This document shows positions 2 to 19,645 of a DNA stretch of 20,000 nucleotides, piece after piece. Source of the stretch: an uncultured virus (IMG/VR IMGVR_UViG_3300033068_001295). Lineage: Duplodnaviria; Heunggongvirae; Uroviricota; Caudoviricetes. The translations under genes were made by a program, and so were the position numbers. Within the stretch, counting starts at the first letter, position 1. Every line of letters begins with the position of its first letter. Below the pieces are notes generated by a model. The model did no database searches, was not told where the DNA came from, and worked only from the letters and a program-made list of their open reading frames with translations. The stretch lies in the IMG/VR virus record IMGVR_UViG_3300033068_001295; one strand, written 5' to 3'.

Positions 2-244
2 GAGTTAAGAACAGCACTTCAAGCGTACATTAAGAGAAACAATAAAGTATTTATTGGAAGGCAAGAAAGTAAAGTTGTAAAATCTTATAGCGAAATGTTT
101 ACTTTCGGAAAGCACATTAATAAAACGGTAGATGAAGTCTTTTTACTAGAAAAAAGCTATTTGGAGTGGTGCTTAGAGAAGTATTCTTTTACTTCCGCGC
201 AAGAAAAATTAAAAACAGAGATAACAGAAATTTTAAAATCGTAA
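2..244 (+). CDS. 5'-truncated protein ending in an 'FGKH...YLEW' module (DUF3820/exonuclease X C-terminal-like)
   Basis: Frame 2 is open from the window start and reads ...MFTFGKHINKTVDEVFLLEKSYLEWCLEK...; stop TAA at 242-244. Confidence 0.65.
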   Translation, partial: ELRTALQAYIKRNNKVFIGRQESKVVKSYSEMFTFGKHINKTVDEVFLLEKSYLEWCLEKYSFTSAQEKLKTEITEILKS

Positions 245-259
245 ATCGCAATATAAGAT

Positions 260-538
260 ATGACAGCATCAAAATGTAATACATGTGGACACAATTATCC
301 TTGCATGTGTAGACAACCATTAGGACAATTTAAAACAGTACATGAGAATGCAGTTTTAATTAACCCACCAAATCCAATAGAAGATATTGAAAAGTTTTTA
401 AAACAAAAAAGAGAGGAATTTACAGAACAAACTGAAAAACTTCTCGCGCAAAGAAAAATAAAAGAACTGATTAAAAAATATCCAAACGATTTAGAGTTAG
501 GTAGAGAAATAAGAAAAATGTTTGCAGATGAAATTTAA
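260..538 (+). CDS. Hypothetical phage protein with N-terminal Cys cluster and C-terminal 'YPNDLELG' motif
   Basis: ORF track 92 aa; CNTCGHNYPCMC; overlaps the next start. Confidence 0.7.
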   Translation: MTASKCNTCGHNYPCMCRQPLGQFKTVHENAVLINPPNPIEDIEKFLKQKREEFTEQTEKLLAQRKIKELIKKYPNDLELGREIRKMFADEI

Positions 539-720
539 ACTAACAAAAGAGCAGATAGGAAAATACGAACTTTGGAGAAAAACTTTAAATAAAGTTGACT
601 ATGGAGCAATCGGTGGTGGTGCTTGGTTTATGTTTTGTCCGACAGGTTTAGGGGGATATTGTAAAAGTAAAACGTGATGACGGCGCGGAAATAGATTTAA
701 CAGAAGAAGATAAGTGGTAA
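528..720 (+). pseudogene. Small phage protein (GAIGG...PTGLG type) interrupted by a +1 frameshift in a G5 run
   Basis: MKFKLTKEQIGKYELWRKTLNKVDYGAIGGGAWFMFCPTGLG, then GGGGG at 651-655; deleting one G continues as DIVKVKRDDGAEIDLTEEDKW* to TAA 718-720. Confidence 0.65.
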
Positions 721-770
721 CAAAACCCCCGAAAAAATTTAAAAACAACCATAAATTTAAGTTAAACCTC

Positions 771-801
771 TTGTAAATAAAACAATATTTAATTATATTT
801 G
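771..801 (+). promoter_or_regulatory. Bacteroidota sigma-A promoter (-33 TTG / -7 TATATTTG)
   Basis: TTG 771-773, 20-nt spacer, TATATTTG 794-801; ATG at 806. Confidence 0.75.
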
Positions 802-805
802 TAGA

Positions 806-1192
806 ATGATTAGAAAATACAGTAAGAAAGGTTTAGAAAAAAGAAAATCCGAGCGAGAGTGTTTGCCTGAATTCTTTAAAAAACATATCGACATAATTAA
901 GTACTATAAATTATCTTGTAGTAATTGTGGAGAACGTTTGGTTGGAGATGTTAGTGAAGTAGCACACAGACTCCCAAAATCTTTTTTTAAATCTATAATG
1001 TGTGATGATGAAAATGTAACTTATTTAGGAGGAAGATTTAGCAAGTGCGGTTGCCATTCCTTGTATGACGGTACAAATGAACAGTTACAATCCCTTTTAA
1101 TTTTCCCCGCAGAGAGAGAGATAATAAAAAAATTATTAGAAAAAGTAACAGAAAATATAAACTATAAACTATACGATAGATGGCTTCTTTAG
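806..1192 (+). CDS. Zn-binding HNH-like nuclease
   Basis: CSNC...EVAHRLPKS...DENV...CGCHSLYD pattern; basic N-terminus; overlaps the recA start. Confidence 0.65.
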   Translation: MIRKYSKKGLEKRKSERECLPEFFKKHIDIIKYYKLSCSNCGERLVGDVSEVAHRLPKSFFKSIMCDDENVTYLGGRFSKCGCHSLYDGTNEQLQSLLIFPAEREIIKKLLEKVTENINYKLYDRWLL

Positions 1193-2151
1193 AAGAAACA
1201 CTTAAAAAATTAAACAAAGGAAAACGAGAACAAGATAATTATTCTTTATTAAAAGAAAAAGAAGTTATAAGAACAAGAACATCTACAGGAAGCCCTTATC
1301 TTGATTACTTATCAGGTGGGTTTATGAATGGTGGTTATAACTGCCTTGTAGCTAAAGGCGGAAGCGGTAAGAGTTCTATTTCTCTATTGGCTTGTAAAGA
1401 TACAATTGACAGAAGAGGTAAGGTAGCTGTTTATTTCGATGGAGAAGGTACTTTAGATGATTCATATTTTAAAAGAATGGGTATAAATAAAGATAAGTTT
1501 ATACATATTCGGCATAGAAATTTAGAAAGAATGTTAGATGAAGCGGAAGCATTTGCACAAGCTGATGAAGTCGGAATTATAGTTTTTGACTCAATTCCTA
1601 TTTTTAAATCAACAGTTGTTCAAGAAAAATCAGCAGGTGACTATACTATTGGTATTGAAGCACAAAGATGGGGCACTCGTATGACCTTGATTGAGGGTTA
1701 TGCAGTAGCAAGAGACATTTGTTTATTAGGCTTACAACATTATAAGAAAGACCCAGGAGTTATGATGGGAGATAATCGAACACTTTCGCGAGGTGAGTGG
1801 CAAGGCACAATGATGAACACTTTTATAGATTTAACTAAAAAGAAGATAATTTTAGATGAAAATAAAAATATTATTGGGCATACTTTAGATGTGAGAATTA
1901 AAAAATCAAAAGGAAGTGCTTATGACCCAACAGAAGTTTTTAATGTTAATTTCTATAATGAAGGTGGGTTTAATCAAATAGATGAGTATGCAAGAGTTTT
2001 TGTAGAAACAGAAATAGCAAAACAAGGCGGAGCTTGGATTAAATTTCCTAACAAAGACGCTGAAGAAGTTTCAGTAAATGGCGTAGATAAATTTATTGAG
2101 CATTTAAAAGCAAATCCAGAAGATTTTGAATTTTTAAAACAGCAGTTATGA
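1180..2151 (+). CDS. recA: RecA/UvsX-like recombinase
   Basis: STGSPYLDYLSGG, Walker A variant AKGGSGKS, YFDGE, Walker B IIVFDS, C-terminal KQGGAW. Confidence 0.9.
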   Translation: MASLEETLKKLNKGKREQDNYSLLKEKEVIRTRTSTGSPYLDYLSGGFMNGGYNCLVAKGGSGKSSISLLACKDTIDRRGKVAVYFDGEGTLDDSYFKRMGINKDKFIHIRHRNLERMLDEAEAFAQADEVGIIVFDSIPIFKSTVVQEKSAGDYTIGIEAQRWGTRMTLIEGYAVARDICLLGLQHYKKDPGVMMGDNRTLSRGEWQGTMMNTFIDLTKKKIILDENKNIIGHTLDVRIKKSKGSAYDPTEVFNVNFYNEGGFNQIDEYARVFVETEIAKQGGAWIKFPNKDAEEVSVNGVDKFIEHLKANPEDFEFLKQQL

Positions 2152-2591
2152 GACCAATAGAAGATATTATAATAGAATATGAAGAATTAAGAGGTTCTTT
2201 TAAAAACTTTACCTCTGTTGGTGACGCAAATAAAGATACACTTTTAGAATACCAACAACGCTTTTTAGATTTAAAGGCAGATTTACGACCTTGGCACACT
2301 AAAATGATGCATGCCTCTGAGATGCGAAGCGATAAGTCAGCCACTGCAATTAAAATGAGGATTGCAATAGCTATGGTAAAAGATGAATATACCTTTTCAG
2401 AAGAAGAAAAGGCTATGTATGAGAAGCCACCGACCATATCAAATGCGGATAAATTTGCCGCGGCTACTAAACAGTACAGAGAATTTTTAGACCAAAGAGC
2501 CTTTTGGAAAGAAAGTTTTGTTAATGTTGCAGATTTACGAGAAGATTTACAAGGTTATATTACTTTGTGTAGAGATAGACAAAATAAATAA
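2148..2591 (+). CDS. Helical protein, possible UvsY-like recombination mediator
   Basis: 147 aa, predicted all-helical, coupled to recA by an ATGA overlap; function inferred from position only. Confidence 0.45.
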   Translation: MRPIEDIIIEYEELRGSFKNFTSVGDANKDTLLEYQQRFLDLKADLRPWHTKMMHASEMRSDKSATAIKMRIAIAMVKDEYTFSEEEKAMYEKPPTISNADKFAAATKQYREFLDQRAFWKESFVNVADLREDLQGYITLCRDRQNK

Positions 2592-2593
2592 TA

Positions 2594-3037: not shown

Positions 3038-3177
3038 AACGTAGCATAAGAAAAATAATAGATGAAGAACTACTATTTTTAAACAAAAATATAAAAACAT
3101 TTGATGATATATCTCAATATAATAAAAGAAAAAACACTAATTACATTAAATTAATACTATATCTTAATGAAATTTGA
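3034..3177 (+). CDS. Short hypothetical protein (47 aa)
   Basis: MKRSIRKIIDEELLFLNK...; overlaps neighbours at both ends. Confidence 0.45.
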   Translation: MKRSIRKIIDEELLFLNKNIKTFDDISQYNKRKNTNYIKLILYLNEI

Positions 3178-3226
3178 ATTAACAAAAGAACAAATAGAAA
3201 AGTATCAAAATTGGCGCAAAAAATAA
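3167..3226 (+). pseudogene. 19-codon remnant paralogous to the N-terminus of the 528-720 gene
   Basis: MKFELTKEQIEKYQNWRKK* versus MKFKLTKEQIGKYELWRKT. Confidence 0.55.
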
Positions 3227-3623: not shown

Positions 3624-3624
3624 A

Positions 3625-3973: not shown

Positions 3974-4369
3974 ATGCCACCAAAAAAAATAAAAAACCCA
4001 AAAGTACCGAGAACAAGAAATAACTTTACACTAACCGAATCTGCTTTTTGGGGATTTATTAGGTCTACATTAAGAAATGCATCAAGATGGTGGAAACCTA
4101 TTACACAATGTAAATTAGAGTCAAGAAGAGTTTACAAGGGGGCTAAAAAACTACAAAAATGGGAGTACCAATGTAACCACTGTAAAGATTGGTTTATGGA
4201 AAAAGAAATACAAGTAGACCATATTGTTGATGCAGGGACACTCACTTGTGGAGAAGATTTGAAAGGGTTTGTAGAAAGATTATTTTGCGAAGTGGGTGGA
4301 TTTCAAACACTCTGTAAGCCTTGTCATCAAATAAAAACTAATAATACTCGTAATAAAAAAGAAAAATAA
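3974..4369 (+). CDS. HNH endonuclease
   Basis: YQCNHC...IQVDHIV...FQTLCKPCHQIKT. Confidence 0.85.
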   Translation: MPPKKIKNPKVPRTRNNFTLTESAFWGFIRSTLRNASRWWKPITQCKLESRRVYKGAKKLQKWEYQCNHCKDWFMEKEIQVDHIVDAGTLTCGEDLKGFVERLFCEVGGFQTLCKPCHQIKTNNTRNKKEK

Positions 4370-4370: not shown

Positions 4371-4402
4371 TTTGCATATATCAAATTAATGTTGTATATT
4401 TG
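4371..4402 (+). promoter_or_regulatory. Bacteroidota sigma-A promoter
   Basis: TTTG 4371-4374, 20-nt spacer, TATATTTG 4395-4402. Confidence 0.8.
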
Positions 4403-4406: not shown

Positions 4407-4570
4407 GAATTTAAGAAGAGAACCGTTAGATGCACCTTAGCTGGTAGTAAATAGCAAACGTCATACTTCTTTATTGGCTAAAGCCGTTAATACCAATTAA
4501 AATAAGACGGAGAGTGTAGGCAAAGGCAATTCCCTACGACAATATAGTACTTAACTGCCAAATCTATATT
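4407..4570 (+). ncRNA. Candidate structured RNA or long 5' leader
   Basis: ~180-nt gap without a credible ORF directly after a promoter; several stems plus potential pseudoknot and kissing-loop pairings; no family recognised. Confidence 0.4.
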
Positions 4571-4585: not shown

Positions 4586-4900
4586 ATGATTTACATTACA
4601 TATCAAAATACGATGCCCTATGAACCAACTTTTATTAGTAATGTTTGGCAAATAGATTGTGATGATGCCGAAGAAAGATGGAAAGAGTTTATGTTAGAAA
4701 AAGCAAATTCTATTGGTTTAATTATAAACCCACATCACCTAAATGCAATGAGTTATGAAAAGTTTCACTCCGAAGAACCTTACTCAGAATATGCAAAAAA
4801 GTATAAATGGTGGAATAAAAGGCTAAAAGAAAACACCTTTGAAAATTATTTAGAAAATGTTTTAGGCGCAAAAAAAGTTGAATATAAAGAAATATACTAA
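4586..4900 (+). CDS. Hypothetical protein
   Basis: 104 aa ORF, TAATG-coupled to the next gene. Confidence 0.7.
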   Translation: MIYITYQNTMPYEPTFISNVWQIDCDDAEERWKEFMLEKANSIGLIINPHHLNAMSYEKFHSEEPYSEYAKKYKWWNKRLKENTFENYLENVLGAKKVEYKEIY

Positions 4901-5682
4901 TGACAGAACAAATTAAAGATTACTTACTAAAGTACAACATTAAGTCAGAAGAAGACTTAGCTAAACATATTGAAGAATTAAAAAGAAATACTGTTCCTAA
5001 TAATGAATTAATCTTTCCTTTGGTTGAGGTTTTGTTGAATGAAAAAGCCGCTCTTAGTTCTTTTTTCCGCGAAAATATCATAAATAACAGTTCAGATTGG
5101 GTAGATATAAGACACCATTTTGCCGCAAAATGGTGTGAGATAAAGCATTTATATGATATTAGTGTAATAGGTAAAAGAAAGTTAAGTGTTTTAGAGAGTA
5201 ACTTTTACAACACCTATGGTGATATTATAGAAATAATTCGCGCAGAAACAGATGAAGATTTAAATAAAATATTGTGTAATATAAAAATGAGAGATACAGA
5301 GCAAGAATTAACATCAGAGGAGCATATTGAAGAACAGTTGGTTTTTAATGAAGGATGCCTAATGTCGCAAGAATTTGGTAAAAAAGAGACAGAAAATAAA
5401 TTACCAATGTCAATTCTATTTAAGCAGTTTCCTGACGCTTTAAAAGCAATTGTAAAATGCTCTGAATACGGGCACAAAAAATACAGTGACACAGACCAAG
5501 ACTATTTAAATTTTAGAAGAATTAAAGGGGGAAGTAAAGCTTACGCAGACGCAGGGTTAAGACATAGATTAGAAATAGGAGACGATTTAGAGAGTTATCT
5601 TCCACATCCTTACCACATTGCTTGGAACGCTCTTGCAGAACTTCAACTTTGGATAGAAGAAACAACGTTAAATAAATCATAA
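4900..5682 (+). CDS. Protein with C-terminal dATP/dGTP diphosphohydrolase domain (DUF5664-like)
   Basis: KLPMSIL...ALKAIVKCSEYGHKKY...NF...YADAGLRH...DLESYLPHPYHIAWNAL; ~150-aa N-terminal region not recognised. Confidence 0.8.
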   Translation: MTEQIKDYLLKYNIKSEEDLAKHIEELKRNTVPNNELIFPLVEVLLNEKAALSSFFRENIINNSSDWVDIRHHFAAKWCEIKHLYDISVIGKRKLSVLESNFYNTYGDIIEIIRAETDEDLNKILCNIKMRDTEQELTSEEHIEEQLVFNEGCLMSQEFGKKETENKLPMSILFKQFPDALKAIVKCSEYGHKKYSDTDQDYLNFRRIKGGSKAYADAGLRHRLEIGDDLESYLPHPYHIAWNALAELQLWIEETTLNKS

Positions 5683-5685
5683 ATA

Positions 5686-5717
5686 TTTGCATCTTAAATA
5701 ATAAAGAACTATCTTTG
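5686..5717 (+). promoter_or_regulatory. Bacteroidota sigma-A promoter
   Basis: TTTG 5686-5689, 20-nt spacer, TATCTTTG 5710-5717; ATG at 5722. Confidence 0.8.
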
Positions 5718-5721
5718 AACT

Positions 5722-6180
5722 ATGAAAAAAATATATCTAAGCTGTGTAATGCAAGTGGTAAATGAGGAAGGACAAACCTTAATTGACAGAGCCACAAATA
5801 AAAGCCAAAAAGAAGTTAATGGACTTACAAAAGAGTGGTTTCAAGAGCAGTCTTTAAAACCACCAAAAGAGTTAGAAGATGAAGAAATTGAAAGAGACGA
5901 AGAAGGTAGAATTCTATTAGATGACAAACATTTAGATTATGAAAGTCTTTCGGTTGGAATCCCTTTAAAAAATATTAACAGTTGGGTTGAACATTCTGAT
6001 ATGGGATGTATAGTAAACACTAAATGTGGTAACTCCTATCATGTATATGAAGAATTTGATGAGATAGATGATTATATTGATTTTTTAAATTTGACTTGGT
6101 TTGGGAGATTTAAAATTTCTGTTTCTAGTTTTTTCGCGCGATTTAAAAATAAAAAAGTACAAACACACATAACAAATTAA
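5722..6180 (+). CDS. Acidic hypothetical protein
   Basis: 152 aa ORF directly behind a promoter. Confidence 0.7.
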   Translation: MKKIYLSCVMQVVNEEGQTLIDRATNKSQKEVNGLTKEWFQEQSLKPPKELEDEEIERDEEGRILLDDKHLDYESLSVGIPLKNINSWVEHSDMGCIVNTKCGNSYHVYEEFDEIDDYIDFLNLTWFGRFKISVSSFFARFKNKKVQTHITN

Positions 6181-6193
6181 TAGTACAAAAACA

Positions 6194-6898
6194 ATGAATT
6201 ACAACAATTACAGTTTAAGCTCAAGTAAAGGAAAATTATACTTGAAATCAAAAACAAAACAAGACGGTTACGAAGAGGTAAAGTACGGAACAGACGGAAC
6301 AAGTGTTACATATCATAAGTATGTTCAGTCTATCAAAGGTATTCCAACTTACCTAGAAACAAAAGAAATCACCCACGAGGGAAGAGTTTTAAAGTTCCTA
6401 GAACTCACTCTAGTAGACGGAGAAGATGCTAATAAGCTATCTGTGCCTTTGAAAAATAAAGGTGGATATACAGATGAGGTAAAAGCTTTAGTATCTGCAT
6501 TAAACGGACTAGATTTAGGAGAAGAAGTTACTTTAAACCCTGTAAAAAATAAATACACAAACAAACAAGGAGTAGAGAAAGAGCAACTAGGGGTTTACAT
6601 CAATTATGTAAATAGATTAGGAGAAAATGGAAAAGGATTATCAACAGGATATATTCCATTTACAGATATTCCAAAACCAACTTCTAAAGTTGTGGCAAAT
6701 GACACAGTTTGGGACTGGTCAGAACAAACAGAATTCTATTGGAAAAGGTTGACAGAAATTGAGGCTAGGTTTAAAAATCAAACTACAAGTCCATCAACAC
6801 AAGCACCAAAAGCATCTGCACCAACAGCAACACCTGAGCAAGCTTTTCAACCTGCTGATAAAACGCAAAACACTGACTTTCAACCACTGCCCTTCTAA
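6194..6898 (+). CDS. Probable phage single-stranded DNA-binding protein
   Basis: Beta-rich N-terminal domain, Pro/Thr/Ala linker, C-terminal ...TDFQPLPF resembling the Bacteroidota SSB DLPF tail; recombination gene context. Confidence 0.6.
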   Translation: MNYNNYSLSSSKGKLYLKSKTKQDGYEEVKYGTDGTSVTYHKYVQSIKGIPTYLETKEITHEGRVLKFLELTLVDGEDANKLSVPLKNKGGYTDEVKALVSALNGLDLGEEVTLNPVKNKYTNKQGVEKEQLGVYINYVNRLGENGKGLSTGYIPFTDIPKPTSKVVANDTVWDWSEQTEFYWKRLTEIEARFKNQTTSPSTQAPKASAPTATPEQAFQPADKTQNTDFQPLPF

Positions 6899-6913
6899 AA
6901 AAGTAAACAAAAT

Positions 6914-6952
6914 ACCCCCACGAGCGCATAAGTTTCTGCAAGTGGGGTTTTT
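6914..6952 (+). terminator. Possible intrinsic terminator
   Basis: CCCCAC (6916-6921) pairs with GTGGGG (6942-6947), followed by TTTTT, just after the SSB stop. Confidence 0.55.
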
Positions 6953-6971
6953 ATAAACCAAACAAAACCAA

Positions 6972-7382
6972 ATGGAAAACAAAATTGACCCAAAAACAAT
7001 TAATCTTTTTGAATATCAATACGACGAAAACGCAGAAGTAAGTATTTCAGGAATGGCACTATACGGACTTTTACAATTTTTAAATACAGTTAAAGAGAAT
7101 GAAACTCACACTATATTTGCTCATTCATACGCTTTAAAAGGAAAAGAAGTAAAAGAAAAAGATTATTTACTAAGAGTAGAACAAGAATTTAAAACTTACC
7201 CTAACGGAGATAGTTTTTTTGCACAACAACCTGTACTTGGTACAACACAATTAGGGGCAGTAGCTACTGATTTACTATTAGGTTTACAGTCTGTGCATTT
7301 AGCTAACATTGAATCGGGCAGTGCAAAAAAATTAGGTTCATTCACAAAAACAGAAGAAAAAGATGTGGCAGTTAGTCTCTAA
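6972..7382 (+). CDS. Hypothetical protein
   Basis: 136 aa ORF. Confidence 0.75.
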   Translation: MENKIDPKTINLFEYQYDENAEVSISGMALYGLLQFLNTVKENETHTIFAHSYALKGKEVKEKDYLLRVEQEFKTYPNGDSFFAQQPVLGTTQLGAVATDLLLGLQSVHLANIESGSAKKLGSFTKTEEKDVAVSL

Positions 7383-7584
7383 ATATCACTCTAAAGAGTT
7401 AGATAAAATTAAACGCTTTACAGGTGCTAGTTACGTAAGTTATGAAGAATGTAAAAATAAGTTTAGACTAAAGTATATCAAAGATAAGAAAACAACTTAC
7501 TTTGACTTAGATGGATACCCTTCTGATGTAACTCCAAAAAGATACTTAGAATTATTAAATACAATCATTAATGAGCGAGTATAA
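7363..7584 (+). CDS. Hypothetical protein
   Basis: 73 aa ORF overlapping its neighbours. Confidence 0.6.
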   Translation: MWQLVSKYHSKELDKIKRFTGASYVSYEECKNKFRLKYIKDKKTTYFDLDGYPSDVTPKRYLELLNTIINERV

Positions 7585-7741
7585 AAAATTATATAAAACC
7601 TTACTAGATAACGGGGAATTGCAAGAGCTTTTCCCCTCTATGAAAGGTGATTGGGAACAAGATAAAAAGCAATTTATTTTAGAGCAAAAAGACTTAGAAG
7701 ATTTACTAAAAGATATAGAAATAAACGATGACGAATATTAA
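7571..7741 (+). CDS. Small hypothetical protein (56 aa, below the ORF-track cutoff)
   Basis: MSEYKKLYKTLLDNGELQELFPSMKGDWEQDKKQF...; overlaps the groEL start. Confidence 0.65.
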   Translation: MSEYKKLYKTLLDNGELQELFPSMKGDWEQDKKQFILEQKDLEDLLKDIEINDDEY

Positions 7742-9254: not shown

Positions 9255-9258
9255 AACA

Positions 9259-10404: not shown

Positions 10405-10649
10405 TGATACCAACAGCACACACAGCAGATGACTACGCAGGGTTAGAAACAGAAAATTTTAGTTTTTATTTTGGATATGAAATACAAGATGAAGAGGAGA
10501 ACTGGTGTTTTACAGCAAGCGATAAAAACGGAAAAGAGTTGTTTAGAGCCTCTTCAAAAGAATTAAATTGTGTAGGGGATTATCCAGAAATAGGGTTATT
10601 GAAGGGCGTAGGAGTATTTTTAGAAAACGAAATAATAGGATTAGTATGA
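10404..10649 (+). CDS. Hypothetical acidic protein
   Basis: Start reassigned to ATG 10404 (TAATG overlap); MIPTAHTADD... Confidence 0.65.
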   Translation: MIPTAHTADDYAGLETENFSFYFGYEIQDEEENWCFTASDKNGKELFRASSKELNCVGDYPEIGLLKGVGVFLENEIIGLV

Positions 10650-11745: not shown

Positions 11746-12059
11746 AGAAAGGCTACATATATTTACTGTGGGATGGAGAAGATGCTTATAAAATAGGCGC
11801 GACTAAGAACCATCCCTCAGAAAGAATTAAAAACTTAAATTCTGGAAACCCTAATAAAATAGTTTTAATAGACTACTTTGAATGCGAAAAATATTTTAAA
11901 GTAGAAAAAATGTTACATAAAAAGTATAGTCAGAATAAAACAGATGGAAACAATGAATGGAGATATTTATCAAGAGAACAAGTTTATAGTTTTAAAAGTG
12001 ATTGTGAAATATTATGTGACACATTAACTTATATTTACAATAACAATGAATTCTTATAG
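11736..12059 (+). CDS. T5orf172/GIY-YIG-like nuclease domain protein
   Basis: GYIYLL...YKIGAT...ERIKNLNSGNP...VEKMLH...NEW. Confidence 0.8.
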   Translation: MVVKKGYIYLLWDGEDAYKIGATKNHPSERIKNLNSGNPNKIVLIDYFECEKYFKVEKMLHKKYSQNKTDGNNEWRYLSREQVYSFKSDCEILCDTLTYIYNNNEFL

Positions 12060-12088
12060 CGGATGCCGAAAAGCTAATAGAGTAGGTA
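12057..12088 (+). ncRNA. Candidate compact H-type pseudoknot cis-element
   Basis: TAGC 12057-60 pairs with GCTA 12073-76; loop TGCC 12064-67 pairs with GGTA 12085-88; GC-rich island 20 nt before the ATG at 12108. Confidence 0.35.
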
Positions 12089-12107
12089 ATATATAAATAC
12101 ACAATAA

Positions 12108-12419
12108 ATGAACTACACATTACGAATTATTAATCAGACTCACAGTGGAGCTGAAGAAAGAAGAAACTCTAGTTTAGGAACAGATTATGACGTTCTTATG
12201 AAGACATCTCGCACGTGTCCTGACACACCTAACAGATTTGAGCAAGAGCAGTCAAAGCATTTCAATATTGCAGACACTGTAATAGACCAAACTCTTGTCG
12301 GTTTTGTTTTCAGTAAAGATGGGGTTAGACACCCAATTAGAGATTTTGAAGTTGCCTATATTGTTAATGAAAACGGACAAACTTTTGAAAGAGTCTACGG
12401 ACAATATGAAAGGTATTAA
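12108..12419 (+). CDS. Hypothetical phage protein (C-terminal AYIVNENGQTFE)
   Basis: 103 aa ORF followed by a terminator. Confidence 0.75.
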   Translation: MNYTLRIINQTHSGAEERRNSSLGTDYDVLMKTSRTCPDTPNRFEQEQSKHFNIADTVIDQTLVGFVFSKDGVRHPIRDFEVAYIVNENGQTFERVYGQYERY

Positions 12420-12425
12420 ATTAGT

Positions 12426-12447
12426 AACCCCCATTTAAGGGGGTTTT
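12426..12447 (+). terminator. Intrinsic terminator
   Basis: AACCCCC-ATTTAA-GGGGGTT followed by TT. Confidence 0.7.
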
Positions 12448-12462
12448 ATATAAAAAGAAGTT

Positions 12463-12969
12463 ATGGTTATATTAATAATTTTAGTTTTTGTTGGTGCTGT
12501 TGTATTTTTATTTCGGCGCACTTCGTTTAAAGGCTTTACCTGCAAAAGTAATAAAACAACAGTTTTAAAGGACAAAATAGATATAAGTATACCTTACACC
12601 TACTCAGCGTTTGAATTAGACCTTATAACGCTTATAAATAAGCATAGAGATACGTTAGGGCTACAAGAAGTGAAGTTAAATGATTATATGTCTAACTTAT
12701 GCTTGGAACATAACAAATATATGGCGGAAAAAGGAAAAGCAAGTCATGATAATTTTGATATCCGTTCTAAAGCTATTTTAGATAACTTAGAGGCTCAATC
12801 AGTTAATGAAAATGTTGCTTATAATTATTCTACACCGTCTTCTACTTTAAATGCGTGGTTAAACAGTGAAGGACATAGGAAAAACATAGAAAACCCTAAG
12901 TGGAATTTAATAGGAGTTAGTAATTTTTCAAAATTTTCTACGAATTTATTTGCACATGTAAAAAATTAG
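12463..12969 (+). CDS. Membrane-anchored CAP/SCP domain protein
   Basis: N-terminal TM; LINKHR...HNKYMA...SHDNF...ENVAY...AWLNSEGHRKNI...IGVS. Confidence 0.88.
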   Translation: MVILIILVFVGAVVFLFRRTSFKGFTCKSNKTTVLKDKIDISIPYTYSAFELDLITLINKHRDTLGLQEVKLNDYMSNLCLEHNKYMAEKGKASHDNFDIRSKAILDNLEAQSVNENVAYNYSTPSSTLNAWLNSEGHRKNIENPKWNLIGVSNFSKFSTNLFAHVKN

Positions 12970-12980
12970 TTATATATTTG
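12949..12980 (+). promoter_or_regulatory. Bacteroidota sigma-A promoter
   Basis: TTTG 12949-12952, 20-nt spacer, TATATTTG 12973-12980. Confidence 0.8.
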
Positions 12981-12998
12981 TGGAATAAAATAAGAATT

Positions 12999-13253
12999 AT
13001 GACAGCGAGACAAATATTAATGGAGGGTAACGAAGGGTGCTCTTTTATAGATGTAATAAACAATCTAACTGAAGACCAAATACTTGACTGCATGCACGAA
13101 TATGCTAAGTTAAAGTGTAAAAAGTTGTTAGAAATAGTGGCGGAGAAGGCTCAAGTAAAAACAGTTACTTTACCTAATGGTTTAAATATTAAAACTTGTG
13201 TTGTTGATGAGGTCTCTATTTATGATATTGACTTAGAAGAGTTTTGGTCTTAA
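12999..13253 (+). CDS. Hypothetical protein
   Basis: Start moved to ATG 12999 because the TTG at 12978 lies inside the -7 box. Confidence 0.65.
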   Translation: MTARQILMEGNEGCSFIDVINNLTEDQILDCMHEYAKLKCKKLLEIVAEKAQVKTVTLPNGLNIKTCVVDEVSIYDIDLEEFWS

Positions 13254-13264
13254 TATTTTTACGT

Positions 13265-13576
13265 ATGACAGAAGAATGGAATACAGGATACTACGATAAA
13301 CATGATAAATTTCAAACCTATTAAAAACGGTGGTGTTGTACAGAAAATAAAATTATACACGGCTCAGAAAAAGAAAAAATAACAATTAAAAATGATGGTA
13401 AAGGAAGAGCACAATCTTTTGAAGCAGAGTTAAATGAATCTTCGGAAGGTAATTATTGGGGACATTGGGAGGTAAGACTAAGTGGTTATGGAGCTAATGA
13501 ATATTCCGCAAAAGAAAATTTAAAACAAAAATTTTACGAACTAATAGAAAAATGGAATGAAAATAACAAAGACTAA
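13265..13576 (+). pseudogene. Disrupted small gene(s)
   Basis: ATG 13265, in-frame TAA 13322-24, then ~83 more open codons (IKNDGKGRAQSFEAEL...GYGANE...) to TAA 13574-76 with no ATG of their own. Confidence 0.5.
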
Positions 13577-13883
13577 AGAAGTTATAACAGAAGAAATAGA
13601 AGTAGTTCCAGGAACTTATTATTTTGAAGATGAAAATATAATAGCACATAGATTTATTTTAAAAGAGCCAGAAGATGAGTATTCGGAATATATGTTAGAA
13701 ACCTTATATTCAAATTCTAATAAAGTAGGTATAATTATAAGAGAAGATGGAACTTGGGATGATGAACATTTACCATTTGTATTTTCTCAGTTTATCACAG
13801 GAAACGGCGGAAAACAAATTACAAAAGAAGATTTTGAAAAAGAAAGACAAGAAGTATTAAAAAGATTAGCAGATGAAAGATAA
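13557..13883 (+). CDS. Hypothetical protein
   Basis: 108 aa ORF. Confidence 0.7.
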   Translation: MKITKTKEVITEEIEVVPGTYYFEDENIIAHRFILKEPEDEYSEYMLETLYSNSNKVGIIIREDGTWDDEHLPFVFSQFITGNGGKQITKEDFEKERQEVLKRLADER

Positions 13884-14202
13884 AATACAAACTAACGTTC
13901 AATTAATGTGTGACGGCGTAGAATTAAATATTGCCGCGACAAAAAATTTAAAAAAGGAAAAAGGTAATCTTAAAAACTTCGGTTACATACAAGTAAGTAC
14001 AGGAATGGCAGATGAAAAACATCCTTGTTTTTGGGATAATTTAAATTTTTTCTTGAAAGCAGATTTTAAAACGTTTAAAGAAGAGTGCAAAGAAGATTTG
14101 AAAAAGGGAAATTTTCCGCCGAAAAAAACTTATGAAACAATAAAAAGATTATTAAAACGAGCAACCAAGCTAAAGATAATTGAAACCATAACAATAGAAT
14201 AA
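13873..14202 (+). CDS. Hypothetical protein
   Basis: 109 aa ORF overlapping the upstream stop. Confidence 0.7.
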   Translation: MKDKIQTNVQLMCDGVELNIAATKNLKKEKGNLKNFGYIQVSTGMADEKHPCFWDNLNFFLKADFKTFKEECKEDLKKGNFPPKKTYETIKRLLKRATKLKIIETITIE

Positions 14203-14204: not shown

Positions 14205-14669
14205 ATGCACCACTTCTTCAGCAAAGACATCACAGTAGAAAATATAAATGAGCTTATCACCACACTAGATACAGATGAGAAAATAAACCTATACTTTAGT
14301 ACAGAAGGAGGTAGTCCATCAGCAATGAAATTTCTCATAGACTTTTTAAACACTAAAAATGTTGAAATAACTTTAGTAGATTGGGTTATGTCTTCGGGAA
14401 CTTTACTTTTTACAGATTTTAACGGTAAAATAAATTTACACGAAGAGCTAGATTGTATTTTATTCCACATGTTTGATAGAGAAAGTTACAGTTTACGTAA
14501 GGGCTTTTTAAATGAGAAGATATTAACTAAACAAGATTTAGAAGGGAATAAAAAATTCGCGGAAAAAATTAAAAACAAAGGTTATTTGACAAATAAACAA
14601 ATAAAAAAATTCTTAAAAGGAGAAGACGTAATAATATATAAAAAGACGTTTTCAAAATGGAAAGTATAA
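14205..14669 (+). CDS. ClpP-family protease-like protein
   Basis: INLYFSTEGG (cf. LYINSPGG), VMSSG (Ser), LFH (His), GEDV (candidate Asp). Confidence 0.65.
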   Translation: MHHFFSKDITVENINELITTLDTDEKINLYFSTEGGSPSAMKFLIDFLNTKNVEITLVDWVMSSGTLLFTDFNGKINLHEELDCILFHMFDRESYSLRKGFLNEKILTKQDLEGNKKFAEKIKNKGYLTNKQIKKFLKGEDVIIYKKTFSKWKV

Positions 14670-15005: not shown

Positions 15006-15245
15006 ATGAAAGAAAACAAAGATTTTTTAGAACTTCATAAAGGTAGTTTAGAACACTTAGGTTTTTGGCAAGAAAGTTATTTACAAACCCTTTTAAAATC
15101 CGCGGAACAAAACTATAAAACGGAAATTATCAAAGACTACACCATAACAGATATAATACTGAAAGATAATAAATTTATAATGAAATGGGTAAAAAGACAT
15201 GTGCCTTTAACAAAACAAGAACTTAAAGAACAATATGGAAGATAG
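15006..15245 (+). CDS. Hypothetical protein
   Basis: 79 aa ORF. Confidence 0.65.
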   Translation: MKENKDFLELHKGSLEHLGFWQESYLQTLLKSAEQNYKTEIIKDYTITDIILKDNKFIMKWVKRHVPLTKQELKEQYGR

Positions 15246-15492
15246 CCAAAGAGAAGCAATGTACAACGGGTGGGCAAACAGTAAGATTTGGCTCGATGTA
15301 CTTAAAGAAGTCGATTATGAAAAAACTACCGTTAGTGTAATTTTTGGCGAAAAAGAATATAAAGAAACTGTTTATAAAAAAGACTGTTTCGGAAATTCAA
15401 ATCCTTATAATATAGCATTTAACAGATTGCTTACAAAAATGAAAAACATTGATAAGAATATTGAAATGAAATACGAATGGAGATTGGAATAA
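15235..15492 (+). CDS. Hypothetical protein
   Basis: 85 aa ORF; last gene before the non-coding block. Confidence 0.65.
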   Translation: MEDSQREAMYNGWANSKIWLDVLKEVDYEKTTVSVIFGEKEYKETVYKKDCFGNSNPYNIAFNRLLTKMKNIDKNIEMKYEWRLE

Positions 15493-16520: not shown

Positions 16521-16663
16521 AAATACAAAGAACCATTGACGGCTTTTATATAGCTGAATTTTTAGGCGGTAATTTATGCGCCTTTACTATCAACGATTTA
16601 ATTTGTCAGTTGTGGCAAATATACGGTTTTAAGTTATCTTTATTTGAATTTAATAATAATTAG
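16514..16663 (+). CDS. Small hypothetical protein (49 aa)
   Basis: MLKIQRTIDGFYIAEFLGG...; overlaps the upstream stop. Confidence 0.5.
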   Translation: MLKIQRTIDGFYIAEFLGGNLCAFTINDLICQLWQIYGFKLSLFEFNNN

Positions 16664-16703
16664 ACCCTTTAATCTTTTTGGCGCGAAAAAAGATAAGAAA
16701 CAG

Positions 16704-16910
16704 ATGAGCATAGAAAACATCACATTTGAAAACGACGATACAATTAAAGATACGTTAACAAAAACAGTCTTATTGCATTGTGGCACAACGGAACTTAAAA
16801 AGCATTTAAAATCTTTGGGTATAGCTAACTACTCTAAAGTTGAGAAAGGTGCGAAAGTAAGTTATATTTTAAGAGGTGATAATATTGGGCGGTTAGTTGT
16901 TACCTTATAA
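16704..16910 (+). CDS. Hypothetical early protein
   Basis: Start moved to ATG 16704 (MSIENITF...). Confidence 0.6.
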   Translation: MSIENITFENDDTIKDTLTKTVLLHCGTTELKKHLKSLGIANYSKVEKGAKVSYILRGDNIGRLVVTL

Positions 16911-17014: not shown

Positions 17015-17461
17015 ATGAAAACAGTTAACGTATTAGAAGCAATTGCAAACGATGTACAAATTCAAAAAGCAAGTAAAAAAATGAAATGCCCAATGACTAA
17101 CGATGAGTTTTTGTCAACGGCTCAAAATTATATTAATGCTATTCGTGAAGGTCGTATGTTGTGTATTATTCCAAAAGTTTCATCTAGCGGAATGAGTAGA
17201 CAAATTAAATTTCATTCGTTTGAGATTAATACTAAACCTTTAAATCGTGAAAGTGTCGGGTATTATTGTCAATATTGGAGCTTTTTTAAAATGTTAGGCT
17301 ATAGTGAAGCTAGAAACGGTGACGCTTTTACAATCGGTGGCTGTGGTATGGATATGATTTTCCACACAAATTACACAATCATACACAAGTTAACAAGGTT
17401 AGGAATGTTAACGGAAGACGAGTGCAAAACTTTAGCACAAATGACCCCAACGGTTTTATAA
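17015..17461 (+). CDS. Conserved-looking phage protein of unknown function
   Basis: VSSSGMSRQI and GCGMDM motifs; start moved to ATG 17015. Confidence 0.75.
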   Translation: MKTVNVLEAIANDVQIQKASKKMKCPMTNDEFLSTAQNYINAIREGRMLCIIPKVSSSGMSRQIKFHSFEINTKPLNRESVGYYCQYWSFFKMLGYSEARNGDAFTIGGCGMDMIFHTNYTIIHKLTRLGMLTEDECKTLAQMTPTVL

Positions 17462-17482
17462 TTTCGCGCAAAAAAACTAAAA

Positions 17483-17656
17483 ATGGAGGTTTTAACAGCA
17501 CACAGAGAAAAGAAAAGTACTTATAACATGGTAACTACTATCAAAGATAATAACGGTAAAGTAAAAGCTATTTTAAACGGTTATAATCAACCGAATAAAA
17601 ATCAAAAAACAATTACAGTAAGAGGTACAACGTTTAATTTAAAATTTGAAGACTGA
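17483..17656 (+). CDS. Small hypothetical protein (57 aa)
   Basis: MEVLTAHREKK...; TGATG-coupled to the next ORF. Confidence 0.55.
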   Translation: MEVLTAHREKKSTYNMVTTIKDNNGKVKAILNGYNQPNKNQKTITVRGTTFNLKFED

Positions 17657-17837: not shown

Positions 17838-18197
17838 ATGAAAACATACACCATAAACCACATATCAGATAATGACGGAATCAAAACAGTTATTACTTGT
17901 GAAAACATTTCAAAAGTTTGGTATCTCCAATGGTACGACTTCAACCGTGAAATAAAACAAGTTCAAAATATAGAAGTTGTTTCAATAACAGCAGAAGGAT
18001 TTAACCACGCTAAAGACTTGTATAACTTCCATAAGAACCAAGAAAGGTATAGAACCGAAAGCATAAGACTACAAACCAAAATTAATGCCTTAGAAAGCCA
18101 GGTATTGACAAAATTTGGTAAGTTATTGAAAGGGAAACAAAGCAAAAGTAAAATCAATTCTTTTTTGAGGGGTGAAATTTCCGCAAAGAAAAATTAA
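17838..18197 (+). CDS. Hypothetical protein
   Basis: 119 aa ORF. Confidence 0.7.
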   Translation: MKTYTINHISDNDGIKTVITCENISKVWYLQWYDFNREIKQVQNIEVVSITAEGFNHAKDLYNFHKNQERYRTESIRLQTKINALESQVLTKFGKLLKGKQSKSKINSFLRGEISAKKN

Positions 18198-18255: not shown

Positions 18256-18565
18256 ACCATAATAACGGGATAAAATGAAATACAAGACTAGACAAAAAAC
18301 CATTTTAACGGTAGAAACTCTAATTAATTGGGCGAATGTTTCTAAACTTTTAACAGGTGGAAGCGATAGAATACGCAAAAATCGCATCCCAAAGGTACAT
18401 GAAAGTAAAATTGAAGAACTTTTAATACTCTTACAATGTTGGAAAGACAATAAAAAGCTATTTAGTGAAGAACAATTGACCCAAGCATTAAGCAAAATTG
18501 ATACAAAAACCATAATAATGGTAGAAATGGGTTTACTCTATAAGGAGTAAAACCATATTAACGGT
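18256..18565. repeat. Four 14-bp quasi-palindromic sites, consensus ACCATWWTAAYGGK
   Basis: Starts at 18256, 18299, 18509 and 18552, each preceded by AAA; spacing 43/210/43. Confidence 0.85.
18275..18550 (+). CDS. Small basic protein, putative DNA-binding regulator
   Basis: LINWANVSKLLTGGSDRIRKNRIPK resembles an HTH-like segment; bracketed by operator-like sites; variant -7 box TACATTTA at 18239-46. Confidence 0.6.
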   Translation: MKYKTRQKTILTVETLINWANVSKLLTGGSDRIRKNRIPKVHESKIEELLILLQCWKDNKKLFSEEQLTQALSKIDTKTIIMVEMGLLYKE

Positions 18566-18592
18566 ATAAATCGCGCATAAAAAAATAAAAAG

Positions 18593-18736
18593 ATGGCTTA
18601 CAACCACTGTAACAACAGAAAAGAAGCAAAGGTATATACAGATAGTTTACTACTGTGTTTAGGTTTAAAAAATAAATGTAAAACCTCGTTAAGGGCAGTG
18701 TTTATAGGGGAGGACAACCCCAACCCAAAATTCTAA
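18593..18736 (+). CDS. Possible small ORF (47 aa)
   Basis: ATG 18593 in an A-rich context. Confidence 0.35.
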   Translation: MAYNHCNNRKEAKVYTDSLLLCLGLKNKCKTSLRAVFIGEDNPNPKF

Positions 18737-18738
18737 CT

Positions 18739-18797
18739 TATCGAGTATCAACTATTATTTATCGTTTATCAATAAATAAGTATCGTTAATCAATAAA
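18739..18797. repeat. Three 21-bp-periodic direct repeats TATCGnnwATCAA
   Basis: TATCGAGTATCAA 18739, TATCGTTTATCAA 18760, TATCGTTAATCAA 18781. Confidence 0.75.
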
Positions 18798-18834
18798 ACA
18801 ACTATTATATTTTAATCATTACAACGTTATAAGT

Positions 18835-19056
18835 ATGGAATCACCACAATTTAAAAACAGTCAGTTGCAATTTGATTTAGAAAAAATACTATCTTACGAT
18901 GATTGGTGTTATACAGACATAACAACAGACTTTAGTAATGGACTAGGTTTTATTTTAGATATTAAAGATAATAGTTATTTTTATTTGAATAAATCGGATA
19001 GAGATTTGGATGACAGTCTTATTATCGAAGTGTTGAAAGATAAGTTTCTTTTTTAA
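18835..19056 (+). CDS. Small acidic hypothetical protein
   Basis: 73 aa, Asp-rich. Confidence 0.65.
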   Translation: MESPQFKNSQLQFDLEKILSYDDWCYTDITTDFSNGLGFILDIKDNSYFYLNKSDRDLDDSLIIEVLKDKFLF

Positions 19057-19112
19057 TTTTCTTTTCGCGGAATTTTTAATGATAATCATTTTATACTAAT
19101 GAGATATTAACT

Positions 19113-19256
19113 ATGGAAGCAAAAGGATATGTATTGCAAGATTTAAGAACAAAGTTTTATTTTTCAAGTCTTTATTCAGATGAATTATTCTACCGTTCAT
19201 TTTCAGACGCTCGTATATTTTTCAGTTTCTTTTTTGCCCGAAATTGTAAAACGTAA
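19113..19256 (+). CDS. Possible small ORF (47 aa)
   Basis: MEAKGYVLQDLRTKFYF... Confidence 0.4.
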   Translation: MEAKGYVLQDLRTKFYFSSLYSDELFYRSFSDARIFFSFFFARNCKT

Positions 19257-19311
19257 GCAAGGTAATAGATTAAGTAAGCATATATTTTAACCATTTTAAG
19301 ACACAAACAAC

Positions 19312-19596
19312 ATGAAAAGTATAACTAACGCACAACAAGAATTAAATGCCCTTAAAAACGATGTTATAGGGATTTATAAACATAGAACTTTAGGAGTATT
19401 TGAATTAGTTTTAAAAATTAATAGAGATGCTGAAACTATTGAAACAATTTTTATTAGTCAATTTGGAGCAATTCAAAGAGGTTTTGGAATCCAATATCAA
19501 CAAGGTATTTTACGAATGTTTGAAGAGGGTAAAAACTTTAACGATATGTTAGATAATCCTTTTGAATGGAATGATTTTATAAATTCCTTTTCTTAG
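19312..19596 (+). CDS. Hypothetical protein
   Basis: 94 aa ORF. Confidence 0.7.
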   Translation: MKSITNAQQELNALKNDVIGIYKHRTLGVFELVLKINRDAETIETIFISQFGAIQRGFGIQYQQGILRMFEEGKNFNDMLDNPFEWNDFINSFS

Positions 19597-19613
19597 TCCT
19601 TTTTCGCCCGAAA

Positions 19614-19645
19614 TTTGTTTTATTAAAAACTTTGTATTATCTTTG
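19614..19645 (+). promoter_or_regulatory. Bacteroidota sigma-A promoter
   Basis: TTTG 19614-17, 20-nt spacer, TATCTTTG 19638-45. Confidence 0.8.

Follow-up and report, generated by a model that had tools for sequence, protein, structure and literature searches.

A 20,000-nucleotide (nt) stretch of DNA from an uncultured virus of the class Caudoviricetes (IMG/VR record IMGVR_UViG_3300033068_001295; referred to here, at its full length, as the window) raises the question of what recognizes a short sequence that recurs along it, in which a run of T's, a G/C core containing CpG and a run of A's follow one another. An earlier note on this DNA had listed 27 such sites and proposed a genome-wide code bound by a protein. 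We found that the excess of this T-run/CpG core/A-run signal is real, that the element looks selected, and that it occurs about once per kilobase in and between the small non-structural genes of one phage lineage, at ~100 copies per genome. The interpretation that we favor, with a probability of roughly 0.4, is a double-stranded-DNA site read by a putative protein that would control transcription of the non-structural arm of the genome.

Relatives of the window were retrieved from IMG/VR with its UvsX protein, giving three complete genomes of 130 to 143 kb (G001 to G003) and three short contigs (L002 to L004); two more distant contigs (L007 and L008) were retrieved with a 234-amino-acid (aa) protein of the window. 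Copies were counted with a loose rule, which required a maximal G/C run of 4 to 8 nt containing CpG, at least three T's among the 5 nt directly upstream and at least three A's among the 5 nt directly downstream. A mirrored form, with the A's upstream and the T's downstream of the CpG run, served as a control, and two strict forms were defined as TTT-core-AAA and TTTT-core-AAAA. In the window, 19 of the 89 CpG runs were loose-rule sites, compared with 6.3 ± 2.4 (maximum, 16) in 200 dinucleotide shuffles, while the mirrored form was found 3 times against 7.4 expected. TTT-core-AAA was present 9 times (0.53 expected; shuffle maximum, 3) and TTTT-core-AAAA 5 times (0.06 expected; shuffle maximum, 1). 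The mirrored AAA-core-TTT was absent from the window (0.57 expected), as were all strict mirrored forms. The excess over the shuffles was therefore 3-fold for the loose rule and 17- to 90-fold for the strict forms. A variant of the test, with runs of at least 5 nt and 6-nt flanks, gave 13 sites against 2.3 ± 1.35 (maximum, 7 in 300 shuffles).

The signal is not explained by the encoded proteins. The window has 15 genic copies, compared with 7.1 ± 2.4 (maximum, 14) in 100 synonymous-codon shuffles within genes and 4.9 after permutation of the codon order. The earlier note had named a codon-preserving null as the test on which the idea would stand or fall, and the excess persisted under it. The complete relatives behaved in the same way. 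Loose-rule counts were 92 in G001 (30.6 ± 5.3 in dinucleotide shuffles), 143 in G002 (39.5 ± 6.4) and 133 in G003 (39.0 ± 6.4), and the genic counts were 79, 111 and 105, against 33.5, 50.3 and 48.8 in synonymous shuffles; none of 100 synonymous shuffles reached the genic count in the window or in any of these three genomes, where the mirrored A-run/core/T-run form was at expectation. Together with the use of all three codon phases, the synonymous-codon and codon-order shuffles rule out a protein-coding artifact. Among 8-mers, the strongest over-representation in these genomes, judged by a third-order Markov model, was that of motif words, e.g., CGCGCAAA, TTTTCGCG, GCGGAAAA and TCGCGGAA.

A sequence-only profile (R1) was built from 24 sense-oriented copies, 10 of them from the window and 6 from the non-structural arm of G002. 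A search of the window, G001 and G002 (293.7 kb) with R1 gave 148 matches at E ≤ 1. The copies in the window are given below, with R1 scores on the plus (+) and minus (-) strands and open reading frames (ORFs) by position.

185..223: core CCGCGC at 195-200; loose rule; R1 17.2 bits (+), 11.6 (-); in the last 50 nt of the 5'-open ORF 2-244, with the start at 260 lying 59 nt on.
434..469: core CGCGC at 445-449; loose rule; R1 10.2 bits; within ORF 260-538, 78 nt before the start at 528.
1100..1115: core CCCCGC at 1105-1110; loose rule; in the 3' end of ORF 806-1192, 69 nt upstream of the UvsX-like start (1180).
4845..4892: core GGCGC at 4865-4869; loose rule; R1 15.7 bits; 30 nt before the start of the diphosphohydrolase-like gene (4900).
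5050..5091: core CCGCG at 5067-5071; strict, TTTTTT-CCGCG-AAAA; R1 22.7 bits (+), the best score in the window, 15.9 (-); inside gene 4900-5682.
5112..5136: core GCCGC at 5122-5126; loose rule; RNA fold of -13.5 kcal/mol (z, -3.29; 0 of 200 shuffles as stable); inside the diphosphohydrolase-like gene.
5234..5248: weaker copy, core CGCGC at 5239-5243; loose rule only; inside gene 4900-5682.
6125..6150: half-copy, TTTTTT-CGCGCG followed by ATTTAAAAAT; outside the loose rule (two A's among the five downstream nt); in the final codons of ORF 5722-6180, with the start at 6194 lying 53 nt on.
13498..13533: core CCGC at 13506-13509; loose rule; R1 14.5 bits (+), 10.9 (-); 47 nt before the start at 13557.
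13923..13961: core GCCGCG at 13933-13938; loose rule; R1 13.3 bits; inside gene 13873-14202.
14099..14145: core CCGCCG at 14116-14121; strict; R1 13.2 bits (+), 13.1 (-); 83 nt upstream of the start at 14205.
14556..14583: core CGCGG at 14558-14562, left flank weak; outside the loose rule; R1 11.1 bits (-); towards the 3' end of gene 14205-14669.
15322..15367: core GGCG at 15346-15349; strict; R1 16.2 bits (+), 13.9 (-); inside gene 15235-15492.
16661..16704: core GGCGCG at 16680-16685; strict, TTTTT-GGCGCG-AAAAAA; R1 13.1 bits (+), 11.0 (-); after a 49-codon ORF (stop at 16663) and before the ATG at 16704.
17457..17488: core CGCGC at 17465-17469; loose rule; R1 18.8 bits (+), 15.8 (-); fills the gap from the stop at 17461 to the ATG at 17483.
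18176..18195: core CCGC at 18181-18184; strict; within the final codons of gene 17838-18197.
18558..18593: core CGCGC at 18572-18576, left flank weak; R1 9.2 bits; flanked by the stop at 18550 and the ATG at 18594.
19042..19091: core CGCGG at 19066-19070, right flank T-rich; R1 15.6 bits (-), 13.1 (+); just past the stop at 19056.
19215..19257: core GCCCG at 19236-19240; strict; R1 14.1 bits; 71 nt before the start at 19312.
19583..19630: core CGCCCG at 19605-19610; strict; R1 11.1 bits (-); just past the stop at 19596 and directly upstream of the box pair TTTG ... TATCTTTG.

All 27 sites listed in the earlier note have a CG core with a T-run and/or an A-run, but 8 of them have only one good flank. 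The loose rule was satisfied by 16 (193, 441, 1101, 4861, 5061, 5118, 5237, 13504, 13931, 14112, 15341, 16676, 17462, 18178, 19231 and 19600), and 3 more (14556, 18571 and 19062) were recovered by the 24-copy profile. The one-flank sites at 1784, 2454, 3211, 6131, 10985, 15099, 15941 and 17809 were found by neither. Three loose-rule sites, at 1510, 8176 and 12723, had been missing from that list. Placement just past stop codons, which had been claimed for the copies at 16676, 17462, 18571, 19062 and 19600, agrees with the ORF list and the sequence. A 19-codon ORF (3167-3226; MKFELTKEQIEKYQNWRKK) that ends within the 3211 site resembles a truncated paralogue of the N terminus of the 528-677 product (MKFKLTKEQIGKYELWRK...).

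The phages that carry the element were placed by their virion genes. The tail ring protein of G002 matched Pfam CrAss_Ring_2 (E, 3.9e-27), and in tblastn searches the large proteins of G001 and G002 matched the portal, the terminase, a tail protein and g065 of Cellulophaga phage phi14:2. By terminase, the nearest cultured phages were Cellulophaga phages phi17:2 (49.5% identity) and phi4:1 (49.3%). The host genome of the element thus has Crassvirales-type virion, portal and terminase genes, and the crAss-type ring protein and the matches to phi14:2 and phi17:2 assign the window to an uncultured lineage distantly related to crAss-like phages. Among deposited phages, a megablast search of a phage collection found no near-identical record.

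All five short related contigs (L002 to L004, L007 and L008) showed an excess of the element, which was densest in the 6.4-kb contig L003 (13 loose-rule sites against 2.0 expected; 11 strict sites against 0.2). Three phages of similar base composition and host phylum were taken as controls. No excess was found in phi17:2, the nearest isolate (21 against 22.5; strict form, 1 against 1.3), in phi14:2 (5 against 15.3) or in the podophage elemoB of Flavobacterium (8 against 10.1). The element is therefore specific to one lineage, and a general trait of AT-rich Bacteroidota phages is ruled out. The lineage also has an overall excess of CpG-containing G/C runs of 4 to 8 nt over dinucleotide shuffles (428 against 308 in G001, 693 against 456 in G002 and 665 against 458 in G003), whereas such runs are in deficit in phi17:2 (270 against 324) and phi14:2 (159 against 185).

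The element measures ~40 bp and consists of phased T-tracts, a degenerate CpG-rich core and phased A-tracts, with a consensus close to TTTTT-AATTC-TTTTT / CpG core of 4 to 7 nt / AAAAA-GAATT-AAAAA. When CpG runs of G001, G002 and the window were pooled, T..A flanks were found on 7 to 8% of the runs of 2 to 3 nt, 17% of those of 4 nt (108/643), 24% of those of 5 nt (86/358) and 30% of those of 6 nt (47/158; also 30% for 6 to 7 nt), against a baseline of 8 to 11% for G/C runs lacking CpG (46/405 and 8/98). The highest shares were found for the cores CCGCG/CGCGG (14/31), CGCGC/GCGCG (11/28) and CGCCG/CGGCG (12/31). A general effect of spacing between T-tracts and A-tracts was rejected, as TTT-N(0-12)-AAA was not enriched at spacings of 4 to 7 (z, -2.6 to +1.3). 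Because pairs of T-runs and A-runs are not enriched on their own, the core is required, and it must be CpG-rich.

The profile of 60 non-redundant strict copies was mirror-symmetric over ~20 nt on each side. Upstream of the core, T-tracts cover about -1 to -6 and -11 to -20, with a dip of A, T and C at -7 to -10; downstream, A-tracts cover +1 to +5 and +11 to +20, with a dip of G and T at +6 to +10. The tracts are thus spaced by ~10 to 11 bp, about one helical turn. The extended flanks said to be shared by the copies at 193 and 441 are indeed there: the right flank of both is the outer A-side arm of the consensus, and a 1-nt indel between the two places it in different reading frames. In a long form of the element, the word CTGT stands 19 nt before the core (12 of 254 copies, compared with about 1 to 2 at other offsets). 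Other copies have its complement, ACAG, 17 to 19 nt after the core, and the two arms are seldom found in one copy. A full palindrome, CTGT-N-ACAG with a CpG center, was rejected, as there was no spacing peak and the half scores were uncorrelated. CTGT often follows directly on a stop codon, which explains the over-represented word TAACTGTT.

The symmetry of the profile was matched by the behavior of single copies. Of the 20 best distinct R1 sites, 17 matched on both strands, with scores usually 2 to 6 bits apart, and in a hand tally ~12 of the ~38 best sites, about a third, scored higher on the antisense strand, despite the sense orientation of the copies from which R1 had been built. The orientation of the core relative to the gene strand was unbiased (121:83, compared with 464:259 for control runs; Fisher p, 0.22). 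Pairing between the flanks was at the control level. Perfect stems at the core averaged 1.73 bp against 1.64 bp in re-paired flanks, stems of at least 7 bp were found at 1 of 387 sites against 2.0 expected, and the mean folding energy was -5.07 kcal/mol against -5.28 kcal/mol for chimeras. In the window, 11 of 12 copies folded no better than shuffles (z, -1.4 to +1.0), and RNAalifold found 0 consensus pairs in the 24 copies. U-runs pair with any purine run, so the chimera test leaves room for weak, non-specific pairing; the stabilities were at the shuffle level anyway. These tests rule out a hairpin or a cruciform as a property of the family. The copy at 5112-5136, in which a perfect inverted repeat of 10 bp encloses a 3-nt loop, is the only one that folds well and is atypical of the family. 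Altogether, the symmetry, strand and folding results point to recognition on double-stranded DNA, not on RNA or extruded DNA.

Transcription termination, which had been among the suggested roles, is not supported in its intrinsic form. Intrinsic terminators have a G+C hairpin followed by a T-run, whereas the element has the order T-run, core and A-run and no hairpin. A scan for terminator-like structures gave 5 against 6.5 expected, and only the palindrome at 5112-5136, found on the minus strand, overlapped a copy. A different signal at the RNA level could be a site in polycistronic mRNA for ribosome landing or re-initiation, or for processing between cistrons, made of the U-run, the CpG core and the A-run. 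It would suit the copies placed after one stop codon and ahead of the next start, leaders in these genomes are typically A-rich, and the genes of the window, hence the copies, are all on the transcribed strand. However, neither DNA symmetry nor matches on both strands would be needed for such a signal, no structure was found, the distance to the start codon ranges from 4 to >600 nt, many copies are in the middle of genes, and in gene blocks on the other strand there is no consistent sense orientation. We regard this explanation as unlikely.

The copies are unevenly distributed. The earlier note had assumed a genome-wide spread, which does not hold, as the structural modules are nearly empty: only 5 of the 148 R1 matches fell in these modules, which make up 110.7 of the 293.7 kb. 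In the relatives, the density follows the small-gene, non-structural regions and is at the background level in the large modules of virion genes. In the window, one block stands out:

5092-13495, plus strand: block almost without the element, no R1 match at E ≤ 1.

The scarcity reported in that note across 6.2 to 10 kb was therefore borne out and is wider still, with no R1 match between 5091 and 13496. Loose-rule sites in the block are at 5122 and 5239, at its left edge, and weak ones are further in, at 8176 and 12723. Its genes are the 234-aa gene and those for GroEL, small membrane proteins, LysM, HD phosphohydrolase and T5orf172. Since GroEL, LysM and the small membrane proteins are late-type functions, the absence of the element is not only a matter of strand or arm.

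Within the non-structural regions, strict copies were 5- to 7-fold concentrated in intergenic gaps (13/32 copies in G002, with 8.1% of the DNA non-coding by simple gene calls, and 16/34 in G003, with 6.6%). The intergenic copies usually lie 4 to 60 nt before a start codon and soon after the preceding stop, and 37% of the gaps of at least 25 nt in the non-structural region of G002 have a copy within 60 nt. In the window, the next start lies within 100 nt for 11 of the 19 copies, compared with 23.6% of random positions (p, 0.0014).

This placement would suit a directional promoter specific to the phage, at which either a host RNA polymerase modified by the phage or an RNA polymerase of phage or virion origin would initiate. 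The T-tracts would be its upstream element, the CpG core would be at or near the start site, and the A-run would give an A-rich leader for the non-Shine-Dalgarno translation of the Bacteroidota type. In agreement with this, start codons in these genomes have A-rich upstream regions with no AGGA/GGAG signal, the long form often directly follows a stop, and the element is confined to non-structural regions. In the phi14:2 preprint (10.1101/2020.03.07.982082), middle promoters are described as host-type and tripartite, and the early transcripts made by the virion polymerase as having no detectable common upstream motif. A promoter should have a direction, however, and we found no strand preference, an unbiased core orientation and the CTGT arm on either side (12 + 5 sense against 6 + 6 + 5 antisense). 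Many copies are mid-gene, and phi14:2 itself lacks the motif. There was also no tie to TAnnTTTG boxes, with at most 3.0 per 100 sites per 10-nt bin on both strands, against 0.5 to 1.5 at control runs. In the tblastn searches, the large proteins of G001 and G002 weakly matched the polymerase-associated g065 of phi14:2 and not the catalytic g066, and they had no DFDxD motif. On balance, a promoter of this kind is a doubtful explanation.

A narrower version, an early-transcription signal of this crAss-related lineage for, e.g., a virion-delivered RNA polymerase or its loading factor, seems improbable to us. Here the easily melted, phased T and A tracts would open under supercoiling around the CpG core. 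If true, early transcription in the crAss-like group would have its first defined sequence signal. In coliphage N4, the virion RNA polymerase reads hairpin early promoters, three in number, with stems of 5 to 7 bp and 3-nt loops. The two are alike in that the phage has, or may have, an RNA polymerase delivered with its virion, and in that the early region bears a small inverted-repeat-like signal. Unlike the N4 promoters, the element has ~100 copies per genome and no hairpin signal beyond composition, 5112-5136 being the only copy that folds well.

Next, copies were compared between genomes at three shared gene borders, around which identity is only about 70 to 80%. At the uvsX border, a copy recurs in five genomes, at one aligned position within the preceding gene. 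Its TTTT is invariant, and the cores are CCCCGC, CGGC, CGCCG, CGCGG and GGCGG, so that the encoded residues differ too. At the border before the diphosphohydrolase-like gene, GGCGC of the window aligns with a CGCGCG copy in G002. At the border before the 234-aa gene, the TTTTTTCGCG island of the half-copy at 6131 aligns with a strict copy in G002, in surroundings that are poorly alignable. The picture is one of a site class that is kept at some gene borders while the exact core and the weaker copies turn over fast.

We conclude that a double-stranded-DNA site for a protein fits the data best, because of the symmetry, the lack of orientation and structure, the CpG core between phased tracts, the preference for gene borders, the exclusion from late-type genes and the restriction to one lineage. 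From these features we infer both the protein binding and the effect on transcription. The reader would be a putative phage-encoded or virion-delivered protein, probably a symmetric dimer or a recognizer of DNA shape. Its target would be the transcription of the non-structural (early/middle) genome part, and the copies at gene borders and the 3' ends of genes may act as operators, roadblocks or promoter-associated sites. The proposal of a DNA code read by a protein is thus compatible with the symmetry, the matches on both strands, the lack of a hairpin, the excess over the codon null and the presence in a single lineage, with the binding itself putative; its genome-wide extent has to be dropped.

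Several observations weigh against this interpretation. The strengths of the left and right halves were uncorrelated (r, 0.07), the core varies from 4 to 8 nt in length, which is unusual for a fixed dimeric site, and most loose-rule copies are inside genes, in three codon phases and evenly along the gene length. Conservation between G002 and G003, a pair with ~90% identity over aligned blocks, was weak: 60 of 88 T..A sites were retained, compared with 11 of 21 mirrored, 33 of 58 T..T and 24 of 32 A..A sites, and third codon positions in the flanks changed at 27 of 275 (0.098), compared with 0.105 to 0.129 at A/T third positions genome-wide. The earlier note had proposed a test of conservation at synonymous sites in relatives; this pair showed no clear site-level constraint. 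As for candidate readers, the ParB_N domain (PF02195) was found in 0 of the 3 complete relatives, in a search whose control matched 11 of 14 reference genomes, and an HU/IHF-like match in 2 of the 3 relatives was sub-threshold (E, 0.0013; 16.2 bits against a 22.4-bit cut-off). Finally, in the sole RNA run found, the window is represented by contigs of 151 to 276 nt on both strands, at a 0.05 share of the sampled words, from which transcript starts, ends and expression are not readable. In addition, a C5-methyltransferase was found in 0 of the 3 relatives, and Pfam and PHROGs scans gave no candidate for an immunity repressor in the window or among the 90 of 246 called G002 proteins that have 120 codons or more. 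Many cores, e.g., GCGG, GGCGG and CGGCG, are not palindromic.

The weak retention between G002 and G003 is also what a non-adaptive origin would predict, namely, a lineage-specific, context-dependent bias of mutation, repair or recombination that makes or keeps CpG runs at junctions of T-runs and A-runs. In this pair, changes frequently displace the T-run/core boundary or insert a GC step, e.g., TTTTCCGC--CG in one and TTTTCCGCGCCG in the other. Core third positions changed at 0.231, compared with 0.30 at G/C third positions, and core first and second positions changed faster (0.108 and 0.095) than those of control runs (0.057 and 0.055). The use of all codon phases, the even spread along genes and the overall excess of CpG runs in the lineage, set against their deficit in phi17:2 and phi14:2, would follow as well. 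Such a by-product leaves unexplained the near-absence of the element from the structural modules of the same genome, the 5- to 7-fold intergenic concentration, the phased outer tracts with the CTGT arm at a fixed spacing, and the sites kept at the three gene borders. For these reasons we find it unlikely.

A further possibility is that the border sequences are recombination linkers that let related phages swap small genes, like the PeSL cassettes. PeSL (promoter-early stem-loop; PMC2839356 and PMC4122927) are composite terminator/promoter cassettes of T4-type phages. Like the element, these non-coding cassettes are short and conserved, recur where small, variable genes of early type adjoin in a large lytic phage, and are absent from the conserved structural core. 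PeSL has an early sigma-70 promoter and a stem-loop, whereas the element has neither: no pairs were found in the 24 copies, and there was no link to host-type boxes. A scan for sigma-70-type promoters gave 92 matches against 93 expected. Unlike PeSL, the element has dyad symmetry and occurs within coding sequence as well.

PeSL lies at indel or replacement junctions; for the element, no such link was found in the one genome pair compared. In G002 and G003, 9 of 75 ends of homology blocks lay within 40 nt of a site, compared with 9.1% of random positions, the odds ratio for gene junctions was 1.02 (p, 1.0), and that for gaps of at least 25 nt was 1.9 (p, 0.33). What speaks for linkers is the location of the element at the borders of small, fast-changing genes and, anecdotally, four co-occurring contigs that match the window only in short stretches beside copies. 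These come from the run containing the whole stretch, which may be its source, and in which short matches of other contigs begin or end beside copies, at 16675, 17487, 19215 and 19631 (4 of 6 listed loose ends in this run, with 120 further loose ends over all runs outside the listing). This hints at border sequences shared among co-occurring relatives. With the junction test negative, we consider a linker very unlikely. Other readings, such as a role in priming, DNA entry or protection from defense, are jointly improbable; none of the results pointed to DNA entry, to such protection or to packaging.

Full-text literature searching turned up no account of the element, in line with the statement in the earlier note that no described system was known; the search was limited and is no proof that the element is unpublished. 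It appears to be undescribed so far. Two known systems come close to it. Stoperators oriented with transcription and ~13 to 14 bp long are found in some phages. In Cluster A mycobacteriophages (PMC6550527), the stoperator is described as an asymmetric site bound by a monomeric immunity repressor (PMC9283540). As with the element, tens of copies of one short site are spread across a phage genome, in genes and at borders, and in that system one protein stops elongation. In contrast, the element has a degenerate core, is symmetric and unoriented as a site, and comes without a repressor candidate. If it is a symmetric operator array, it would be an unoriented counterpart of stoperators in a lytic phage.

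The other system is that of the Noc sites, which avoid one part of the replicon, as the element does. By the consensus quoted in PMC3020112, the Noc site of Bacillus subtilis is a palindrome; it is read by a ParB-family protein. It has the same order of a T-run, a CpG-centered G/C core and an A-run, in dispersed copies. The Noc site is a fixed 14-bp palindrome of a bacterial chromosome, whereas the core of the element is 4 to 8 nt long and mostly non-palindromic, and ParB_N is missing from all three relatives.

Large lytic phages organize their expression program through signals dispersed at gene borders. For crAss-related phages the element offers a countable handle, with ~100 copies per genome, a clear consensus and sister phages as negative controls; if it is a promoter, it bears on early transcription in crAss-like phages. 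Its presence in coding sequence despite the codon-level expectation indicates that a non-coding signal can strongly shape phage protein sequences.

The window is AT-rich (G+C content, 30.5%). Nearly all ORFs are on the plus strand, and many small ones had no family assignment in Pfam or PHROGs. No tRNA genes were found in the window. Pfam and PHROGs scans identified the following genes:

1180-2151: UvsX/RecA-like recombinase.
3974-4369: HNH endonuclease.
4900-5682: dATP/dGTP-diphosphohydrolase-like protein.
7728-9254: GroEL.
9853-10404: LysM protein.
10646-11245: HD phosphohydrolase.
11736-12059: T5orf172 protein.

With GroEL of the window as the query, no relative was found among viral contigs. 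The G002 regions L027 9806-10735, L029 8095-9881 and L029 11891-18196 hold genes for a reverse transcriptase (RVT_1), a Thg1-like tRNA-His guanylyltransferase adjoining an RNA ligase, and a protein of 2,102 aa that bears an ART-PolyVal ADP-ribosyltransferase domain.

Several non-coding features were also seen in the window. The gap between the T5orf172 gene and the ORF at 12108 contains a match to the Rfam DUF805b RNA (RF02914) at 12056-12088 on the plus strand (45.7 bits against a gathering threshold of 35.6; E, 2.7e-10). After the HNH gene, the gene-free region 4410-4560 has a segment, GAGAACCGTTAGATGCACC, in common with L003 (6250-6393, with one mismatch in L003), where it is directly downstream of a motif copy. 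This segment had no Rfam or tRNA match and may be a small RNA. At the right end, 19890-20000 consists of tandem units of 12/24 nt (GGGGCTAATGTTAGGGATAATGTT...) within the 3'-open ORF 19674-20000. In the run containing the whole stretch, the summed contig depth there is about ten-fold higher (509.8 against ~47), with several short contigs, which suggests that the array is repeated or variable.

Two G+C-rich hairpins followed by T-runs, read by eye and unlisted by a simple scan, look like ordinary intrinsic terminators distinct from the motif: one at 6905-6955 (ACCCCCAC...GTGGGGT+TTTTT), after gene 6194-6898, and one at 12425-12450 (CCCCC-ATTTAA-GGGGG+TTTT), after gene 12108-12419. Pairs of TTTG ... 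TAnnTTTG boxes are at 4371-4400, 5685-5716 and 19614-19645, upstream of the genes at 4586, 5722 and 19674, and the last pair is directly downstream of a motif copy. They resemble the Bacteroidota primary-sigma promoter.

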